Of a DNA stretch of 64,000 bases, positions 1 through 60,192 are shown piece by piece. The stretch covers positions 1,357 to 65,356 of the forward strand of contig JAJDDM010000072.1 in the NCBI GenBank assembly GCA_029260315.1, read 5' to 3'. The notes beneath the pieces were generated by a model. That model was not told the origin of the DNA, did no database searches, and saw only the letters and a list, made by a program, of their open reading frames with translations. Source of the DNA: Phycisphaerales bacterium. GTDB taxonomy: Bacteria; Planctomycetota; Phycisphaerae; Phycisphaerales; UBA1924. The position numbers were made by a program, and so were the translations under genes. The number at the start of each line of letters is the position of its first letter. The first letter of the stretch is position 1.

Positions 1-2368
1 TCGCCTCGATCCGCGCGATCTCCTCGGCGCTTACCGGCTTGTTGTGCGAGAAATCGAACCGCAGCCGATCCGGCGCGACCAGCGACCCCTTCTGCTCCAC
101 CCCCTCGCCCAGCACGTCGCGCAGCGCGAAGTTCATCACATGCGTCATCGTGTGGTTCGCGCGGATCGGCTCCCGCCGATCGCGATCGACATGCACCTCG
201 GCGCGATCTCCCACGCGGACGTGCCCGTCGGTCACATGCCCCACATGCAGCACATACCCGCCGATCGCGTCCGCGCGCCGGACGCGAAAACTCCCGGCGC
301 CGTCGCCCGGATCGTTGCTCTCGTGGGACACGACGAAGATCCGCCCGGTGTCGCTCTCCTGCCCGCCGCTCTCGGCGTAGAAGCATGTGTGGTCGAGGAT
401 CATCGCGATCGGATGCCCCGCGGCCCCCGTTCCCGTGTGCACCGAGTTATCCCAGTCCCGCCCGGTCCAGATCGCCCGCACCGTCGCGATCTTCGCGGTC
501 CGCTCGTACTTCGAGCTGTCGTCGGTCGGGGGGATGCCGCGCTGCCGCAGGCTCTCCACCGCCTCGGCGGTCATCGTCAGGGCTCGGTCACTCCCGGCCT
601 TGCCCCCGGCGCGGCTTCGCTCGCGCTGCTCGGCCATGCAACGCTCGAAGCCTTCAATGTCGACGGTCAAGCCACGCTCCTCGGCCATGAGTTGGGTGAG
701 GTCTGGAGGAAAGCCATAAGTGTCATAGAGTTTGAATACGTCTTCACCCAGCATCCTTGGCACAGATTCGAAGTAGTGTTCGATTAGGCGTGGCGTTACT
801 TCGGCGTAACTAAACTGCAAGAAGGGCTCATCGTGGCCTCTCTCGAAGATAGTGAAGGTTGAATGTTCATCAATGCCCATTGCGATCGGTCTTCGGTCAT
901 CCTGGTCCAAGACGCGCTCGATTTGAGCAGGCATGGTCTCGCGAGTTAGTGCCAACAAGTACTTGTTCTCGGTATCATCCTTGAGCGTGAACTGACGAAA
1001 AACGGCGTCGCCGGCATATGACGCGAAAACCCGCAGGCCCCGATCCAACGTCCTCCCAAAGCTCTCCTCCTCCTCCAGCACCACCTCGCGCACAAACTTC
1101 TCCCGCTTGCGCAGCTCCGCAAACGCCTCCCCCATCTGCTCGACAATCACCGGCACCAGCCCGGCGAGAAACCCCGTCTCCGCCCCCAGCATCTGACGCC
1201 CGTACCGCACCGCTCGGCGCAGCACTCGCCGCAGCACATACCCCCGCCCCTCATTGCTCGGCACCGCCCCATCGGCGATCGCAAACGTCAGCGTCCGCGC
1301 ATGGTCGGCGATCACCCGATACGCCGTGTCCACCTGCCCCTCGTCCTCTTCCCCAAGCTTCCCCGCGTACGCTCGCGCCCCCGTCGCCTCCTGGATCGCG
1401 TCGAAGATCGGCGTGAATAGATCCGTGTCGTAGTTCGAGAGCTTGTTCTGCAAGATGCTGGTCAGTCGCTCCAGCCCCATCCCCGTATCCACATGCCTCG
1501 CCGGCAGCGGCTTGAGCTGGGTAGATCGGCTCTCCGAGCCGATTCCCGAGGCGTCCTGGGTAGGTCGGCTCTCCGAGCCGACATCGGGGGCGACGATCTG
1601 GGTAGATCGGCTCTCCGAGCCGACATCGGGGTCGTCCGAGGTGCCTTGCGTGGGAGCTTTGCTCGTCGTCGTGTCGGCTCGGAGACCCGACCTACCCATT
1701 TGCCGATCGAACTGGATGAACACCAGATTCCAGACTTCGAGCACGTTGGGGTCGTCCTGGTTGACAAGCCCCGCCGCGTCGCGCCCGCCGATTCTGTCAT
1801 AGTGAATCTCGCTGCAAGGCCCGCACGGCCCGGTCTCGCCCATCTCCCAGAAGTTGTCCTTCATATTCCCCGCCAAGACCCGCGCCGCCGGCAGGTACTT
1901 CAACCAGATCTCCCGCGCCTCCTCATCCGCCCCCAACTCCTGCCCCGCATCGCCCTCGAAATACGTCGCGTACAGCCGATCCTCGGGGATCCCGCACTCC
2001 TCGGTCAGAAACTCCCACGCCCAGCCGATCGCCTCTTCCTTGAAGTAATCGCCGATCGACCAGTTCCCCAGCATCTCGAAGAACGTGTGGTGATAGGTGT
2101 CCTTGCCGACGTCCTCCAGATCGTTGTGCTTGCCCCCGGCACGGATGCACTTCTGGCTGTTCACCGCCCGGGCCAGTCCTTCCAGCGGCGACCCCGCCGA
2201 AACCTGCCCCAGAAACGCCGGCTTGAACTGGTTCATCCCCGCGTTGGTGAACAGCAGCGTCGGATCATCGTGCGGCACCACCGGGCTCGACGGATAGAAC
2301 CGATGCCCGTGCCTGGCGACGAAGAAGTCGATGAACCGCTTGCGGATCTCGCTGCTGGTCGGGGGCAT
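1..2368 (-). CDS. alaS: alanine--tRNA ligase (AlaRS); the 3' end runs off the left edge of the window
   Basis: Absent from the ORF track because there is no stop in the window. Manual minus-strand translation from ATG 2368-2366 gives [89 protein letters not shown] and LYDTYGFP. These are class II AlaRS signature blocks. The frame stays open to position 1. Confidence 0.93.
1519..1697. mobile_element. REP/REPIN-like array, family D: three direct and one inverted 25-nt GTAG-hairpin units, in-frame inside alaS
   Basis: Direct copies of GGGTAG(A/G)TCGGCTCTCCGAGCCGA(C/T) lie at 1519-1543, 1558-1582 and 1600-1624. The reverse complement lies at 1673-1697. Each unit has a 7-bp stem and 3-nt loop (TCGGCTC TCC GAGCCGA) preceded by GTAG. 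Confidence 0.85.
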
Positions 2369-2485: not shown

Positions 2486-3019
2486 TCAGGATCCCCCTCG
2501 ATGAAACGGCAACCTCTGCCGCTCGCCGACGTACCGGACAGCCCCGCGCACCGCCTCCCCATTCCACAGATACCGCGTGCTTCCGTGCCGAGCCCAGAGC
2601 CTGGTCCCCTCCGTCAGCGCTTCTTTCCGAAGCCTGCGCGTCGCCCACGACTTGAGCTGCCGCATGATCTCCTCGGGCGACTCTTCCGGGGCCGTCAGCA
2701 CGACATGGACGTGCGTGCTCATGGCGTCAGGGGCGAGAAGCGTCCAGTTGCGGATCTTCGCGTGGTCGGCGATCGACCGCCTGACGATGCGCTGGGCGGG
2801 CGCTGTCAGGCGGAACGGAGGCGAGGTCATGCGTCGGCGCGCGGCGTTCTCGCGCAGTTCGTCCTTGGGGTAGTACGGGGTTGCGAACTCGTTGTGTGTG
2901 GAATCCACCGACCCGCGAGCATCGCCATGGAGGCGGTGACCATAAGTGGACCAAGTCAGGAAGTAGGCGAGCGGGCGGCGCTTCGATTCTCTGGTTCGAA
3001 TCGCCGGGTCACCTTCCAT
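2486..3019 (-). CDS. REP-associated tyrosine transposase-like protein (RayT / IS200-IS605 Y1 HUH family), 177 aa
   Basis: This is the 3' 534 nt of ORF 2486..4840(-), starting at ATG 3019-3017 (MEGDPAIRTRESKRRPLAYFLTWSTYGHRLHGD). It has an HUH motif in STHVHVVL and a C-terminal GSTRYLW tyrosine region. It is bracketed by inverted REP-A copies. Confidence 0.8.
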   Translation of the reverse strand: MEGDPAIRTRESKRRPLAYFLTWSTYGHRLHGDARGSVDSTHNEFATPYYPKDELRENAARRRMTSPPFRLTAPAQRIVRRSIADHAKIRNWTLLAPDAMSTHVHVVLTAPEESPEEIMRQLKSWATRRLRKEALTEGTRLWARHGSTRYLWNGEAVRGAVRYVGERQRLPFHRGGS

Positions 3020-3096: not shown

Positions 3097-3127
3097 ATCG
3101 CGAGCTTGCGCTCGCGGCTCCGTTTTG
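3097..3127. repeat. REP family A copy (right flank of the RayT-like gene)
   Basis: The sequence is ATCGCGAGCTTGCGCTCGCGGCTCCGTTTTG, with palindrome CGCGAGC-TTGC-GCTCGCG at 3099-3116. Confidence 0.85.
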
Positions 3128-4636: not shown

Positions 4637-4978
4637 CGGGTCACCACGAGAAAACACAGAGAGCACAGAGGGCACAGAGGGCACAGAGGGCACAGAGGGC
4701 ACAGAGGGCACAGAGGGCACAGAGGGCACAGAGGGCACAGAGGGCACAGAGGGCACAGAGGGCACAGAGGGCACAGAGGAAGAATATTCACCACGGAGTT
4801 GCGCGGAGTTCAAGGTGCGGAATCGGATCGTCCTCGACACCGTTCCTTCCGACTCCGTGTCACTCCGTGAAACTCCGTGGTGAACTCCTTGCTTTTCTCT
4901 CGTGCCCTCTGCGCCCTCTTGTGGTTCATTCCTGCTCTTCGCTTTTCGCTTTTCACTTTTCGTTTTCTACCCTCCCCC
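4637..4978. repeat. Nested imperfect palindrome filling the sthA-holB spacer (repeat family G)
   Basis: TTCACCACGGAGT at 4787-4799 mirrors ACTCCGTGGTGAA at 4872-4884. The CACAGAGGG units on the left mirror CCCTCTG units at 4905-4920. Four (G/A)CTTTTC heptamers lie at 4941-4967. Confidence 0.8.
4655..4780. repeat. Tandem repeat, 14 x 9 bp (CACAGAGGG)
   Basis: Counted directly: the units start at 4655 and recur every 9 nt to 4772. The first unit is CACAGAGAG and the last is CACAGAGGA. The repeat is open in all frames (the TEGTEG, QRAQRA and PSVPSV artefact ORFs). Confidence 0.97.
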
Positions 4979-38699: not shown

Positions 38700-38817
38700 A
38701 ACCGAACGGGCTCGTTGTTCGTTCTGGGCCACACGTCGACGATGCGAGTCTTGAACTGAGCGACGGGTGTGCGCGGTTCAACCTCATTGGGACAAGCTCC
38801 CAGGAGAGGAGCTTGTC

Positions 38818-39603
38818 ATGATGCCTATGCGGCGAAACTGGCGGGGCCCGCGAGCCGGAGCGTTGGCGTTCACGACGATCGTTGGACTCTGTCTGGCCGT
38901 GGGCGGCTGTTCGTCCCCGTCGAGGTCGGGCGGGGGGCCCGCGCAGTCGGTCAATGAGATGCACCTGCTCGGCTCGGGGGTCCACCGGGTCGACAGCGCC
39001 CCCGACGACTGTCCCGTGTGCGCTGTGTACGAGCGCAACCACGGGAGCGTCGTGCGGGTGCGTGTGCCCGGCGGCGTCGGGGCGGGTGTCGTGGTCTCCG
39101 CTTCGGGGGACATCATCACCAACGCGCATGTGGTCGGTGAGAATAAGCTCATCGTCATCGAGACCTATCACGGGACGATTGTCCGCGGGCATGTCGAGCG
39201 GGTCTGGAAAGAGGCCGATCTCGCGATCGTGACCTCCGACTCAGGCGACGTGCATTGGTTGCCCATGGCGTTTGGGCCCGCGGCGTTCCCGCGGGTGGGG
39301 ACCACGACCTACGCCATCGGGCATCCCGTGGGGCTGGGGTGGACCGTGACCCAGGGGATTATTTCGGGCCGGCGAAGAGCCGGCGAGGTCGGCCCTCTCG
39401 GGATGATCCAGACAGACGCCGCGGTCTCGCCCGGGAACTCAGGCGGACCGCTCCTTGACGAGCAGAGCCGTTGGGTCGGCGTCGTCTCGTCGAAGCTCGT
39501 TGGGCCGGGCCTGGAGAACGTCTCGTTCGCCGTGCCGATCGTGGAGGTTCGCCGGTTCTACGAGGAATCGACGGCGAGCCCGGTTACTGGCGGGGTCAAC
39601 TAG
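38818..39603 (+). CDS. trypsin-like serine peptidase, lipoprotein
   Basis: ATG 38818 follows GGAGAGGA. Lipobox LAVGGCSS. ITNAHVV (His), DLAIV (Asp) and SPGNSGGPLL (Ser) are present. Confidence 0.85.
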   Translation: MMPMRRNWRGPRAGALAFTTIVGLCLAVGGCSSPSRSGGGPAQSVNEMHLLGSGVHRVDSAPDDCPVCAVYERNHGSVVRVRVPGGVGAGVVVSASGDIITNAHVVGENKLIVIETYHGTIVRGHVERVWKEADLAIVTSDSGDVHWLPMAFGPAAFPRVGTTTYAIGHPVGLGWTVTQGIISGRRRAGEVGPLGMIQTDAAVSPGNSGGPLLDEQSRWVGVVSSKLVGPGLENVSFAVPIVEVRRFYEESTASPVTGGVN

Positions 39604-39698: not shown

Positions 39699-41045
39699 AT
39701 GAACCACCCCGCCAGCCACATCTTCGCTTTCACGCCGGATTCGCTCGTTGAATGGTGCGGGGATCGCGGCATGGCGGCGTACCGCGCCCGCCAAATCCTC
39801 GGGTGGGTCTATCAGCGCGGCGTGATCGATCCGGACGCGATGTCCAACCTCGCCAAGCGGGACCGTGAAGTGCTCGCCAACGAGATGACGTTCATTTCCG
39901 GCGACATCCTGAGCCATCAGGCGGCGACCGACGGGACGCGCAAGATGCTCGTGGAATGGAGAGACGAGTCAGACCCACGGAGCCGCGAGCGCAAGCTCGC
40001 GATGGGTCATCCAATCGCCGGCTCGCTTCCGATTCTGCAAGGCTCCTCCGACGGAGGCGATCCAACGCGCCAGACCGAGTGCGTGATGATCCCCGCCGAG
40101 CCGCACGGGCGGGACGCCCGTGCCACCGGGGCGAAAGAAACTCGCGCGGACGAATCGCGCATCCGTCGCACCGCCTGCATCTCCAGCCAGGTCGGCTGCC
40201 CCGTCGGCTGCAAGTTCTGTGCATCCGGCCTCGGCGGGCTCGATGGGAACCTCTCCGCAGGTCGCATCGTCGAGCAGGTCTGGCTGCTGGACCAACTCGT
40301 GAAGGGAAATCTGGTTGAGGGTAGATCGACTCTCCGAGCCGATGCGAGGATTGAGGGTAGATCGGCTCTCCGAGCCGATGCGATGGATGAGCCAGATCAG
40401 AGAGATTCGACAGCAACCCAAGACCAATCGGCTCGGAGAGCCGATCTACCCAGGATCACCAACATCGTCTTCATGGGCATGGGCGAGCCCCTGGCCAACT
40501 TCCAGAGCGTCGTCCACGCGGTCCGCACGATCGCGGCGGATTGGGGCATGGGCATCGGTGCCCGCCGCATCACCATCTCGACGGTGGGTTTGCCCAAGGC
40601 GATCGAAAAACTCGCCGAGCAACTCGAGCTGCCGGTGACGCTGGCGCTGAGCCTTCACGCGCCCAACGACGAGCTTCGTCGGGAGCTGATTCCGTGGGCG
40701 GAGTACACGACGATCGATGAGCTGTTGCGGGCCTGCCGGGCGTGGTTCGACAAGGCCGGGCGGGAGATCACGCTGGAGTACATTCTTCTTGGCGGCGTGA
40801 ACGACCAGGCCGAGCACGCGGGGCAGTTGGCGGGCGTCGCGAAAAGCCTGCGGGCGAACGTCAACCTGATCCGGTACAACGAGGTGAGTGGGTTGCCGTA
40901 TGCGCGGCCGACCCACGCGGATGTGCGCCGGTTCCAGGAGATCCTGCGCGAGCGGGGGGTGAACGCGCACATCCGGACGAGCCGGGGACGGGATATCGCC
41001 GCGGCGTGCGGGCAGTTGCGGCATGAGACCGCAGGGGCGAGATAG
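39699..41045 (+). CDS. rlmN: 23S rRNA (adenine2503-C2)-methyltransferase, radical SAM, 448 aa (about 100 aa longer than usual)
   Basis: Internal ATG 39699 of ORF 39471..41045. YRARQILGWVY, SSQVGCPVGCKFCASG (CxxxCxxC), NIVFMGMGEPL, ISTVG, LALSLHAP, EYILLGGVND, NLIRYN and CGQL are present. Confidence 0.92.
   Translation: MNHPASHIFAFTPDSLVEWCGDRGMAAYRARQILGWVYQRGVIDPDAMSNLAKRDREVLANEMTFISGDILSHQAATDGTRKMLVEWRDESDPRSRERKLAMGHPIAGSLPILQGSSDGGDPTRQTECVMIPAEPHGRDARATGAKETRADESRIRRTACISSQVGCPVGCKFCASGLGGLDGNLSAGRIVEQVWLLDQLVKGNLVEGRSTLRADARIEGRSALRADAMDEPDQRDSTATQDQSARRADLPRITNIVFMGMGEPLANFQSVVHAVRTIAADWGMGIGARRITISTVGLPKAIEKLAEQLELPVTLALSLHAPNDELRRELIPWAEYTTIDELLRACRAWFDKAGREITLEYILLGGVNDQAEHAGQLAGVAKSLRANVNLIRYNEVSGLPYARPTHADVRRFQEILRERGVNAHIRTSRGRDIAAACGQLRHETAGAR
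39969..40073. repeat. In-frame insertion 1 in rlmN, containing a REP family A copy
   Basis: ACGGAGCCGCGAGCGCAAGCTCGCGATGGGT, with the palindrome at 39984-40001, matches the RayT-flanking repeats. It encodes SDPRSRERKLAMGHPIAGSLPILQGSSDGGDPTRQ. Confidence 0.8.
40101..40163. repeat. In-frame insertion 2 in rlmN, containing a family B hairpin
   Basis: CACGGGCG-gga-CGCCCGTG at 40104-40122 is followed by CCACC, as in 54338-54361. It encodes PHGRDARATGAKETRADESRI. Confidence 0.75.
40319..40451. mobile_element. In-frame insertion 3 in rlmN: REP/REPIN-like family D (two direct and one inverted unit)
   Basis: GGGTAGATCG(A/G)CTCTCCGAGCCGAT lies at 40319-40343 and 40355-40379. The reverse complement lies at 40427-40451. 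Confidence 0.88.
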
Positions 41046-41057
41046 CGGGCAAGGGCC

Positions 41058-41222
41058 AAAACGGAGCCGCGTGCGCAAGCACGCGAGAGATCGCCCGGGG
41101 TCCATGGGGCGTCGGTTCTTGCGAGCGATTGCAAGTCTGAACGACTTGAGACCCTTGACGCTCCCTCGCGAGCTGGCGCTCGCGGCTCCGTTTGTGCGGA
41201 ACGCGCTCGCGGCTCCGGAGGC
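41058..41222. repeat. Cluster of REP family A copies between rlmN and hrpA
   Basis: 41058-41088 (stem CGCGTGC/GCACGCG), 41165-41194 (CGCGAGC-tggc-GCTCGCG followed by GCTCCGTTTG) and a half copy at 41203-41222. Confidence 0.8.
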
Positions 41223-52865: not shown

Positions 52866-53444
52866 ATGAGCCGAGCGGTGCCAGCCAGCCAAGCCATGTC
52901 CTCGAAGGATCGTGGCGAGCCGGTGTTGCCGCGCGTCGCCGCCGGCGAGCGGGCCGCCATGCGCGAGTGCATGGAGCGATACAGCGGGCTCGTCTGGTCT
53001 CTCGCCCGCCGCCAACTGGCCTCGCCATCCGAAGCCGAGGACGCGGTGCAGGACATCTTTCTCGACGTCTGGAAGAGCGCCGCCCGCTTCGACGGCGCGA
53101 TCGCCTCCGAGGTCACCTTCATCGCCATGATCGCGCGGCGAAGACTCATCGACCGCCGCAGAAGAGTCGCCGGATCCAAGGAGAAGACGGTCCTCGAAGA
53201 CACCGCGCCACCCGCGGCGAGCCAGTCCAATGCCGACAACGCCGACGATGTCTCCTCGGCCGTCAGCGCGTTCGCCAAGCTCAGCGACGATCAGCAGCGG
53301 GTGCTGCGCCTGTCCATCCAGCAGGGCCTCAGCCACGAGAGGATCGCCGGCGTCACGGGCATGCCCTTGGGCACCGTCAAGACCCACGCCCGCCGCGGCC
53401 TGATCAAGCTGCGCGAGCTGGTCGCTTCCGGAGGTGACTCGTGA
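52866..53444 (+). CDS. ECF-type RNA polymerase sigma-70 factor
   Basis: This is the 3' third of ORF 51714..53444. Region 2 contains DAVQDIFLDVWKSAARF. Region 4 contains LSDDQQRVLRLSIQQGLSHERIAGVTGMPLGTVKTHARRGL. The start is ATG 52866 or 52896. Confidence 0.85.
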   Translation: MSRAVPASQAMSSKDRGEPVLPRVAAGERAAMRECMERYSGLVWSLARRQLASPSEAEDAVQDIFLDVWKSAARFDGAIASEVTFIAMIARRRLIDRRRRVAGSKEKTVLEDTAPPAASQSNADNADDVSSAVSAFAKLSDDQQRVLRLSIQQGLSHERIAGVTGMPLGTVKTHARRGLIKLRELVASGGDS

Positions 53445-54271
53445 GCCCCCTGAACGATCAGAACCGAGACGGGTCGAACCCCGACTGGCTCGATCTCGCC
53501 TGCGACGCCGCGACGGGCGACCTCGCCACCGCGGATCTGGCGCTCTGCGAGGCTTCGCGCCACGACCACGCGGCGGAGTTCGACGAGTTCGATCGCATCG
53601 CGGCGGCCCTCGCAGTCGGGCTCACGCCCATCGAGCAGGCGCCCGGCGACGTCCGGGATCGACTGATGCGCACGCTCCCGGCCATCGAGGCGGAGCCGAT
53701 CGAGTCGCGCCCACTGAGAGTGTCCCCACCGGCGAGTTCGGCGCCGAAAGCCGCGAGTCTCTGGCGGAGCCGCGCGATCGCCGGCTGGTCGATCGCTGCT
53801 CTGCTGGCCCTAGTCGCCGGCGTGATCCTGATCGTCCGGGCGACACCCCCGCAAGCACCCTCGCCCGCCGACGCCCGCCGCCAGCTCATCGCCCGCGGCG
53901 CAACACCGATCGCCTGGGGAGAGTGGTCCGATCCATCCGTCCAGGCCGTCGTGCAGGGCGTGCGCGGCGACGTGGTCTGGGACGACCAGCGCCAGGAGGG
54001 CTACATGCGCTTCGTCGGCCTGCCCACCAACGATCCGAGCGAGGCCCAATACCAGCTTTGGATTCTCGACGGTCGATACGAAGATCCGCTCTCCCAACGC
54101 GTCAGCGGCGGGGTCTTCGACATCCCGCCCGGCGCCGAGGAATGGGTCGTCCCGATCCGCCAAGGGATGCCCATCGAAGACGCCGTGGGCTTCGCGATCA
54201 CCGTCGAACGCCCCGGCGGGGTCTGGGTCTCAGACATGTCCCAGCGTGTGGCCATCGCGCTTAAGGGCTAG
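53441..54271 (+). CDS. anti-sigma factor (RskA-like)
   Basis: The GTG start overlaps the sigma stop (GTGA). A single central TM segment (WSIAALLALVAGVILIV). The C-terminal domain contains YQLWILDG...GFAITVERPGG, typical of the anti-sigma-K RskA family. Confidence 0.8.
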   Translation: MSPLNDQNRDGSNPDWLDLACDAATGDLATADLALCEASRHDHAAEFDEFDRIAAALAVGLTPIEQAPGDVRDRLMRTLPAIEAEPIESRPLRVSPPASSAPKAASLWRSRAIAGWSIAALLALVAGVILIVRATPPQAPSPADARRQLIARGATPIAWGEWSDPSVQAVVQGVRGDVVWDDQRQEGYMRFVGLPTNDPSEAQYQLWILDGRYEDPLSQRVSGGVFDIPPGAEEWVVPIRQGMPIEDAVGFAITVERPGGVWVSDMSQRVAIALKG

Positions 54272-54392
54272 GTCCTGTTTGACGGATCGGTGGAACGGGC
54301 GTCTCGCCCGTTCGTATCGTGGATTATCTCCAACACGCACGGGCGAGACGCCCGTGCCACCGCTGTCTTGTGATCCGTCAAACAGAACCTAG
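54268..54392. mobile_element. 125-bp palindromic element (family B core) between convergent genes
   Basis: The arms are CTAGGTCCTGTTTGACGGATC...GGTGGAACGGGCGTCTCGCCCGT and the reverse complement. CTAG lies at both ends. The element overlaps both stop codons. Confidence 0.8.
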
Positions 54393-54992
54393 AGCCGCAT
54401 CGCGATTCGCGCCCGCCTCGCTATCGTCCATCGGCCGCAGATAGGGCGTCAGGATCTCGGGCACGCGTCGCAGCCCCCGCCGCCTCGCCTTGTCCACGGC
54501 ATACCGCATCGAGTCGTGCATGCGCTTCCGCACGCGGTCGGTGACGTTGAACTCCAGCCGCTCCATCGTGTCGATCGCGAACCGCCAGGCGTGGTACTCC
54601 TCGACGCACCGCAGGCGATGGGTGTCGAAGCCGATCGCATGGTGCCCGATCTCGTGCAGGAAGATCGCGCACGACATCGGTCCCTTCGGGCGCGGCGCCT
54701 CGATCAGCCGGCTGACGCTGCCGTCCCGATAGAGCACCTGCCACGCGACGCCGGACATGCTGGATCGCCACTTGCGGACTCGCACGCCGTGCGTTCGCAG
54801 CATGTCCCGCGTGAGCTGGTCATACCGCTCGCTCATCGCCGGCTTCGCTGCGGGCGCAGGAACACTTGGGCAGGCGGGCGGCGCCGGAAGCACCTCGCCG
54901 ACGCCGACCGATGCATCGTCGCGTCCGGAACGCGGTCGTCGAGGAACGATCCGAGGCTTTGTCGGCTTGAGAATGTCCCACAGCGTCAGCAC
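54378..54992 (-). CDS. hypothetical protein with a HExxH zinc-metallopeptidase-like motif
   Basis: 204 aa. FLHEIGHHAIGF is the only recognisable motif. It lies 16 nt downstream of fmt on the same strand. Confidence 0.6.
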   Translation of the reverse strand: MLTLWDILKPTKPRIVPRRPRSGRDDASVGVGEVLPAPPACPSVPAPAAKPAMSERYDQLTRDMLRTHGVRVRKWRSSMSGVAWQVLYRDGSVSRLIEAPRPKGPMSCAIFLHEIGHHAIGFDTHRLRCVEEYHAWRFAIDTMERLEFNVTDRVRKRMHDSMRYAVDKARRRGLRRVPEILTPYLRPMDDSEAGANRDAALGSV

Positions 54993-60087: not shown

Positions 60088-60192
60088 ATTCTCACCGCGG
60101 AGACACGGAGACACGGAGAGGAACAATGCATTGACTCCGTGACTCCGTGGTGAATCCCTGCCCGATTCCTCTCTGTGCCCTCTGTGGTGAAT
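60088..60192. repeat. Repeat family G, second (unexpanded) copy
   Basis: CACCGCGGAGACACGGAGACACGGAG ... GACTCCGTGACTCCGTGGTGAA ... CTCTGTGCCCTCTGTGGTGAAT has the same core as 4787-4925. Confidence 0.8.

Follow-up and report, generated by a model that had tools for sequence, protein, structure and literature searches.

How can a gene for a conserved enzyme hold segments of three different DNA repeat families and still encode its enzyme? The question is raised by rlmN in a 64,000-nt stretch of contig JAJDDM010000072.1 from a Phycisphaerales bacterium (the whole stretch is referred to here as the window; its G+C content is 66.8%). A preliminary description of this DNA had reported three repeat families in one essential gene. 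The three families, which we call A, B and D, are indeed present, but rlmN is not an essential gene, as both E. coli and S. aureus can do without it (PMC5062987). We concentrate on the third insert, at 40319-40451, where units of family D lie inside the rlmN reading frame. Most likely, this insert is a doublet of GTAG-tagged repetitive extragenic palindromes (REPs), organized like a REPIN (an inverted REP doublet) and accompanied by a slipped extra copy of one unit, and RlmN tolerates it as a translated, disordered loop.

The insert contains two direct units and one inverted unit, placed and spaced as the preliminary description had them (all features are listed in Table 1). Unit 1 (GGGTAGATCGACTCTCCGAGCCGAT, 40319-40343, + strand) has one mismatch to the family D master sequence, and its own stem is disrupted by a G-to-A change. 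Unit 2 (GGGTAGATCGGCTCTCCGAGCCGAT, 40355-40379, + strand) is the exact master sequence. Both direct units fall within a tandem duplication at 40315-40388 with a period of 36 nt, or 12 codons, and 94% matches. Unit 2 and the inverted unit 3 (40427-40451) form an inverted repeat whose arms are complementary at 25 of 25 positions and stand 47 nt apart. As expected for a REPIN, the two inverted REPs fold into one long hairpin. The predicted energies are -77.4 kcal/mol (z = -5.5) for RNA and -39.5 kcal/mol (z = -4.8) for DNA, and the arms are paired in both the minimum-free-energy and the centroid folds. Seven family D copies (up to 3 mismatches) occur at two sites in the 64 kb, compared with 0 expected from 100 shuffles. 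The 47-nt spacer showed no significant similarity to the spacer of the second family D cluster of the window, in alaS, or to the corresponding loops of relatives; the weak resemblance to the loop of one homolog, P0001 (GAGCCAGATC vs. GAGCAAGATC), has p = 0.07. Rfam and tRNA scans gave no match at the family D site, and two tRNAs were found elsewhere in the window. An intrinsic terminator or promoter at the doublet was considered and rejected, as none was found on the coding strand.

The family D unit is 25 nt long and comprises a GTAG head, an 8-bp stem (RTCGGCTC / GAGCCGAY) and a 3-nt loop (TCC). All seven window copies have GGGTAG, and each of T4, A5 and G6 is kept in 90% or more of 46 distinct variants gathered from 103 sources. 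In these variants 94.6% of the stem cells are paired, and six of the eight pairs have changes on both sides. Values as high as these were reached in none of 500 shuffles, and sliding the partner collapsed the signal. The family thus has both the unpaired GTAG head and the short, G+C-rich, maintained stem-loop of GTAG-type REPs, whose stems span 5-13 bp and loops 2-20 nt. The compensatory changes indicate that the hairpin itself is under selection, and family D is conserved as a DNA hairpin and not as a peptide.

We searched for the exact unit in one genome per species and recovered at least 102 stretches of other genomes, which together with the window are the basis of all family D copy, cluster and census counts given here; numbers per genome are small. 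The unit is present without a mismatch in no fewer than 22 other genomes. Among the matches listed, about 19 of the source genomes are metagenome-assembled genomes (MAGs) of Phycisphaerae or Planctomycetota, and the remaining three are Neisseriaceae bacterium HSC-16F19, a Sumerlaeia MAG and an unclassified MAG (samp_2109); the exact 25-mer spans four phyla. Other MAGs have at least 14-15 separate 8-kb stretches, each with a family D unit. Allowing up to 4 mismatches, we counted 189 copies in 122 clusters. Pairs are nearly always arranged + then -, with the GTAG ends outward and spacers of 8-96 nt, mostly 10-18 nt, and single units are common. In the Neisseriaceae genome the exact unit forms intergenic doublets with spacers of 13-18 nt (L005, L010, L011, L017, L018, L050, L054, L064, L068 and L070), and it is present as single units in L033 and six other Sumerlaeia loci, and in L043 and four other samp_2109 loci. 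At L021, L036, L041 and L097 we noted partial tandem re-duplications of the terminal (GA)GCCGAYCTACCC directly 3′ of family D doublets; such re-duplications at the element end suggest slippage or repeated events. At the doublets we found no target-site duplication and no target motif, and only a pyrimidine (Y) at position -1, before GGGTAG, is enriched.

The protein that carries the insert has the features that define RlmN, namely the N-terminal domain, the CX3CX2C motif and two extra catalytic cysteines. It matches the Pfam families RlmN_N (2.9e-11) and Radical_SAM (1.7e-13), and its best solved relative is PDB 6fz6 (7.4e-67, HMMER); the HMMER alignment to the PDB RlmN passes over the family D insert. 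Among protein sequences it clusters with those of Phycisphaerales (Planctomycetota), the closest match having 72% identity. Five cysteines are unvarying in 73 homologs: C167, C171 and C174 of the radical-SAM CX3CX2C motif, and the catalytic C160 and C437. The AlphaFold2 (AF2) model, built with 73 sequences, has a predicted TM score (pTM) of 0.82, and its core matches solved RlmN structures, including 3rfa and 5hr7, with target-normalised TM scores of 0.82-0.89 (Foldseek).

In an alignment with 120 homologs and the E. coli protein, the insert separates the helix EQVWRLxxL from the strand RITNVVFMGMG/RITNIVFMGMG, after the first long helix of the radical-SAM barrel. Its flanks meet the conserved RlmN blocks exactly, the frame is kept and stop-free, and all conserved RlmN residues are retained. 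In the AF2 model the insert residues 203-250 are largely coil with a per-residue confidence (pLDDT) of about 46-64, bordered by a confident helix (187-202) and a confident strand (255-259), and the family A and family B loops are also of low confidence. Several earlier claims about the protein stand: the family D insert adds 45 residues in frame to a loop when compared with relatives whose site is empty, the inverted unit is read as SARRADLP in the rlmN frame, and the catalytic blocks are intact, with the five cysteines invariant and the fold matching that of solved RlmN. One was too high, as the whole protein is only about 60 aa longer than such relatives, for example P0034 (448 vs. about 389 aa), and not about 100 aa.

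We fetched the DNA of orthologs and compared the rlmN loop among relatives. Among 120 homologs, most Phycisphaerales sequences have 4-5 residues at the family D site (e.g., EGVG-R), and about a third have unrelated inserts. The window RlmN groups with P0001/P0002 and P0004/P0006, whose loops of 12-16 residues start with VKGN and are without family D. Family D doublets occupy the same loop in P0115 (L106) and P0013 (L107), where they are read in other frames (VGRLTEP...SARRADLP and GRLALRAD...RLGEPTYP, respectively), and both proteins fall in other clades, beside sisters with an empty site. The loop was thus entered separately at least three times, in the lineages of the window, P0115 and P0013. 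Presence and absence at orthologous sites, which indicate mobility, are therefore documented for this site, between species only. The right-arm junction of the window, CTACCC followed by AGGATCACCAAC, recurs in L106 and, as AGA, in L113 and L118, two metagenome contigs that have another GGGTAC...CTACCC doublet in the rlmN loop with the junction CTACCC followed by AGAATCACCAAC. The left junctions differ between lineages.

Other repeats have also used this site. A different inverted repeat occupies it in P0003 and its relatives. In L108 (1501-2841) the same loop contains an inverted-repeat family, GGAGCGACGAAGCGACGAAGG, read as TERRSDEG / SVASSLR, and TERRSDEG-type peptides are also found in loop 1 of several RlmN homologs. 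We looked for decayed family D relics in the P0001 and P0004 loops. The similarity was not significant (p = 0.04 to 0.98), and we therefore do not claim relics. A scan of metagenomes for the clade-specific rlmN flank gave no match, and one for the junction between REP and rlmN recovered one other repeat family at the site, its remaining matches being mostly due to chance. Protein searches with the insert peptide were uninformative, with no candidates from a word-index search and one weak match from an exhaustive phmmer search.

To place the rlmN insert among other family D copies, we evaluated 106 clusters for their location relative to genes. A cluster was scored as inside coding sequence (CDS) when one frame was open through it and through 240 nt on each side, and when both flanks had a third-position G+C content (GC3) of at least 0.78, exceeding that of second positions (GC2) by at least 0.2. 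Of the unit's six frames, only the one read GGG-TAG has a stop, and the other five are open. By these rules 35 of the 106 clusters lie inside coding sequence, including both clusters of the window, so the extragenic location of classical REPs does not hold for family D. Pfam confirmed conserved enzymes for 18 of 20 host open reading frames (ORFs) tested. The hosts include MiaB-like, aminotransferase, kynureninase, UvrA, MqnC/CofH, MetH, DnaE, MgsA, GlnRS/GluRS, ValRS, UbiD, MnmA, MeaB, aldehyde dehydrogenase, PheT, P-type ATPase and PurL proteins. The alaS and dnaE genes and those of the tRNA synthetases are essential. For the ORF at L089:2804-4816 the sole Pfam match was NAD-GH, a model that often matches antisense frames of G+C-rich genes, and the strand assignment of this cluster is thus doubtful.

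When the two flanks were judged independently, 35 of 37 clusters with coding flanks on the same strand were in phase and open, compared with a chance expectation of one third in phase, and two were out of phase. None of the 37 contained an in-phase stop, and the stop frame was never used. This indicates that the inserts are read through and that the genes were kept working; it also argues against misassembly and against removal of the repeat from the transcript. The census thus came out as the preliminary description had predicted, in the open frames, the intragenic clusters and their phase. The proposal of an open-frame repeat design did not gain from it: stop-free frames are cheap at 67% G+C and hence are no proof of design, and a selection filter explains the phase data.

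We envisage the following history. Family D units would spread as single-stranded DNA hairpins moved in trans by a tyrosine transposase of the HUH type, such as those associated with REPs (RAYTs), and tandem copies may form by slippage or by repeated insertion beside an existing unit. In rlmN, the left arm of the doublet would have been duplicated in tandem over 36 nt. Insertions probably land widely, and the survivors would be those in tolerant surface loops that keep phase and are not read in the TAG frame. The surviving rlmN insert would be translated as a disordered and roughly neutral loop of 45 residues without a dedicated function. In the mRNA it could pair into a duplex of 25 bp, which translating ribosomes would have to unwind.

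Several observations weigh against this account of chance insertion followed by a filter. Our classifier scored 47-57% of random positions as CDS, and against this baseline family D is not depleted from coding DNA in every genome: 14 of 16 clusters are in CDS in LejiaD_71_15 (baseline 0.57, p = 0.02), 9 of 14 in SJ456 (baseline 0.47) and 2 of 2 in the window. The frames are also used unequally, with the GTAG-first unit read as GRSALRAD 27 times and as VGRLSEP five times; for the inverted unit the readings are VGSESRPT and SARRADLP, 13 times each, and RLGEPTYP, four times. Random insertion plus a filter alone predicts neither the non-depletion nor the frame bias. Insertion itself is deduced by comparing species with and without family D at the site, whose RlmN proteins share no more than 72% identity. 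No RAYT adjoining family D copies was found in the window or in the 102 loci by tblastn and phmmer, and the single RAYT that the window encodes is that of family A. The strict term REPIN is thus unproven: the inverted-doublet anatomy of GTAG REPs is present, and no cognate RAYT was found in these loci. Neutrality of the insert is our assumption. Its position on the barrel face opposite the active site is likewise presumed, as helix-to-strand loops of beta/alpha barrels lie opposite the catalytic strand ends. Finally, the 47-nt spacer could be old loop sequence, and then the doublet may be two separate insertions.

The last point leads to a stepwise origin, in which two single REPs were inserted around a pre-existing 47-nt loop segment and a 36-nt slippage duplication followed. 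We regard this as a possibility of less than even weight. A spacer of 47-48 nt is atypical in a family that mostly uses 10-18 nt, the closest relatives already have the VKGN loop of 12-16 residues, and single units are common. The resemblance of the spacer to the P0001 loop points the same way but is not significant. Against a stepwise origin, arms matching at 25 of 25 positions are more easily obtained by one recent event or by arm copying, and the alaS cluster has the same overall layout. It is rather unlikely, in our view, that family D or its transposase targets coding or transcribed DNA, or loop-coding sites, and is adapted to life inside genes. This would account for coding shares at or above random in LejiaD_71_15, SJ456 and the window, for the excess of GRSALRAD over VGRLSEP, for the junction CTACCC followed by AG(G/A)ATCACCAAC that is common to three lineages in rlmN, and for a loop that family D entered on three or more occasions and that other families have used as well. 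In contrast, the family is depleted from coding DNA in 42896_E15 (1 of 13 clusters), in the Sumerlaeia MAG (0 of 6), in samp_2109 (0 of 7) and in the Neisseriaceae genome (0 of 12, where the GC3 rule is weak). Moreover, no target motif or target-site duplication was seen beyond the pyrimidine at -1, left junctions vary by lineage, and there are few clusters per genome among the matches listed. A strong tolerance filter also predicts reuse of a loop in a 380-aa enzyme with three variable loops. The broader idea that in some Phycisphaerales, the source of the window among them, family D has shifted to an intragenic life in phase within loops of dozens of housekeeping enzymes, with targeting of coding DNA or selection on the peptides, plus spread across phyla, we consider similarly improbable.

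That the insert has been co-opted appears very unlikely. The loop peptide might serve as a binding surface or in localisation, or the 25-bp mRNA duplex might regulate rlmN through RNase III or pausing. In favour of this are a very stable RNA duplex, arms in perfect conservation and a preferred frame across genes, and processing of Neisseria repeat hairpins in mRNAs by RNase III is known (reference B17 in PMC3733652). However, unrelated proteins read this DNA in five frames and in either orientation, copies of it also lie between genes, the closest RlmN relatives lack the insert, the loop is predicted to be disordered, and conservation is at the level of the DNA hairpin and not of the peptide. 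Even less credence can be given to an artefact, in which a misassembly or binning error placed the repeat in rlmN or the transcript loses the repeat and the protein is normal. Repeats are a known cause of misassembly, but independent assemblies made in different studies have in-frame family D doublets in rlmN (L106 and L107) and in about 30 other conserved genes, the phase of the 35 clusters would be needless if the segment were absent or spliced out, and the flanks join the conserved RlmN blocks exactly. We therefore retain the tolerated REPIN-like doublet with a slipped copy as the best explanation.

Di Nocera, De Gregorio and Rocco (2013; PMC3733652) defined GTAG-tagged REPs, in which dimers predominate, across many phyla, the PVC group among them. 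The extragenic criterion for REPs was already relaxed in that survey. It reported intragenic GTAG REPs, a dimer of which adds 20-30 aa and a cluster 43-82 aa to proteins including those of uvrA, dnaE and tRNA synthetases, and proposed neutral insertion in loops or linkers. Family D resembles these REPs in its unpaired GTAG, its short G+C-rich stem (6-9 bp in theirs) and its 2-3 nt loop, as well as in the prevalence of opposite pairs or clusters and in overlapping hosts (uvrA, dnaE and tRNA synthetases). It differs in coming from Phycisphaerales, which are not in the 2013 set, in a much higher intragenic share in some genomes (14 of 16 and 9 of 14), and in its frame bias. Its stem, (R)TCGGCTC / GAGCCGA(Y), could not be matched to the 24 families of the survey, of which the family figure was unreadable, and its peptides are not in the supplementary files of PMC3733652. 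A literature search found no published description of the unit or its peptides. Intragenic GTAG REPs as such are thus already published (PMC3733652), and the rlmN case matches them in anatomy and behaviour. What is new here is the lineage, the triple occupancy of one gene and the recurrent hits on one loop.

REPINs are inverted REP doublets mobilised by single-copy RAYTs, and their vertical inheritance and the cost of hitting genes have been stressed (PMC3116915; 10.1101/2021.07.10.451892). As in REPIN-RAYT systems, inverted family D REPs fold as one hairpin, near-identical copies surround a master sequence, and the window has a RayT-like gene bordered by REPs of its own, which are those of family A. 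In contrast to those systems, which are extragenic and have a lineage-specific RAYT-REPIN association, family D lies in coding DNA and in four phyla, and its RAYT was not found. The identity of the unit across phyla would conflict with the vertical-inheritance picture of REPINs. An older case of in-frame palindromes is that of the Rickettsia palindromic elements (RPEs; Ogata et al., 2000; PMC10969869, PMC3733652). The likeness is one of behaviour only: in-frame palindromes in unrelated housekeeping genes, translated as surface segments that fold and function can accommodate, with many genes affected per genome. RPE-1 is about 150 bp long, A+T-rich, found in an obligate intracellular alphaproteobacterium and translated as one conserved peptide each (PMC10969869), whereas family D units measure 25 nt, are rich in G+C, have five reading frames in use and come from free-living Planctomycetota. 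[quoted passage not shown] They have terminal inverted repeats derived from insertion sequences and usually target-site duplications, neither of which was seen at family D doublets. Identity with MITEs was rejected, as there is no direct duplication beside the doublets and only the Y at -1 is enriched.

Table 1. Repeat-derived features and associated genes in the window (positions are those of the 64,000-nt stretch).
Feature	Positions	Strand	Remarks
rlmN CDS, 448 aa, host of three repeat-derived inserts	39699-41045	+	ORF, Pfam and PDB match
First copy of 36-nt tandem duplication, with family D unit 1 (40319-40343)	40315-40350	+	read as VEGRSTLRADAR
Second copy of 36-nt tandem duplication, with family D unit 2 (40355-40379)	40351-40386	+	left doublet arm
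Spacer between arms, 47 nt	40380-40426	+	read as A-MDEPDQRDSTATQDQ
Family D unit 3, inverted, right arm	40427-40451	-	25/25 complementary to unit 2; read as SARRADLP
Family A hairpin in rlmN, variable loop 1	39977-40002	+	read as PRSRERKLAM; five window copies
Family B hairpin in rlmN, variable loop 2	40104-40126	+	read as HGRDARAT; three window copies
Second family D cluster: three direct units, 48-nt spacer, one inverted unit	1519-1697	-	in frame in alaS
RayT-like Y1 (HUH) transposase gene, putative	2489-3019	-	Pfam, NCBIfam and homolog annotation
Intergenic family A inverted doublet	41059-41193	.	arms 44 nt, 47 nt apart; rlmN-hrpA region

The second family D cluster of the window has units at 1519, 1558 and 1600 on the + strand and at 1673-1697 on the - strand, and is located in the AlaS loop after FIQFDRQ. 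The preliminary description had pointed to a shared geometry of the two clusters. The alaS spacer is indeed 48 nt long and the cluster is in frame, but spacer length in family D varies between 8 and 96 nt, and any likeness of the two spacers in the window is not clear (z about 2.6).

The RayT-like protein encoded at 2489-3019 matched Pfam Y1_Tnp (5e-7) and, below its cut-off, NCBIfam REP_Tyr_transpos (1.7e-7), and its homologs are annotated as "REP element-mobilizing transposase RayT." Family A units in inverted orientation border the gene (2414-2439 and 3098-3123), so this RayT is the likely mobilizer of family A and not of family D. Going by gene content and arrangement, family A and the RayT-like gene form a putative REPtron in the window. 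Three RayT homologs elsewhere are bordered by inverted doublets of the GAGCCGCG...CGCGG type, as in family A. In a Phycisphaerales MAG, L038:1509-2939 (+) has a RAYT-like segment (HVHLLL motif) in frame with rdgB/HAM1-like N- and C-terminal parts, and GRDARHPG-type hairpins border the RAYT-like segment; here a housekeeping gene appears to contain an entire transposase gene within its own frame.

The intergenic family A doublet starts immediately 3′ of the rlmN stop codon. A family B doublet (CACGGGCGAGACGCCCGTGCCAC plus its inverse, 54290-54360) lies between the convergent ORFs 53441-54271 (+) and 54378-54992 (-), a classical REP position, unlike that of the single family B unit in rlmN. A 9-nt tandem repeat, CACAGAGGG, has 13.9 copies with 99% matches at 4655-4779, and a 16-mer of it occurs reversed at 60171-60186. 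Local synteny at rlmN differs from that of the relatives L104 and L109, in which rlmN directly follows lytB; in the window a trypsin-like protease ORF (38767-39603) lies between ispH (lytB) and rlmN.

The rlmN locus offers a clean case of mobile hairpins as raw material for loop growth in conserved enzymes. As the same loop was filled several times independently, it marks a place where RlmN tolerates insertions. Many "long" or oddly gapped Phycisphaerales proteins, and the low-confidence loops in their models, are likewise derived from repeats, and peptides such as VGSESRPT are footprints of DNA repeats and not domains. Were the absence of depletion from coding DNA and the frame bias confirmed in complete genomes, they would bear on how REPINs persist in gene-dense genomes without killing genes. 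Should family D indeed have moved to an intragenic life, this would mean targeting of coding sequence or loops, or selection on the peptides, together with a spread of REPs across phyla that would stand against the theory of vertical REPIN inheritance.

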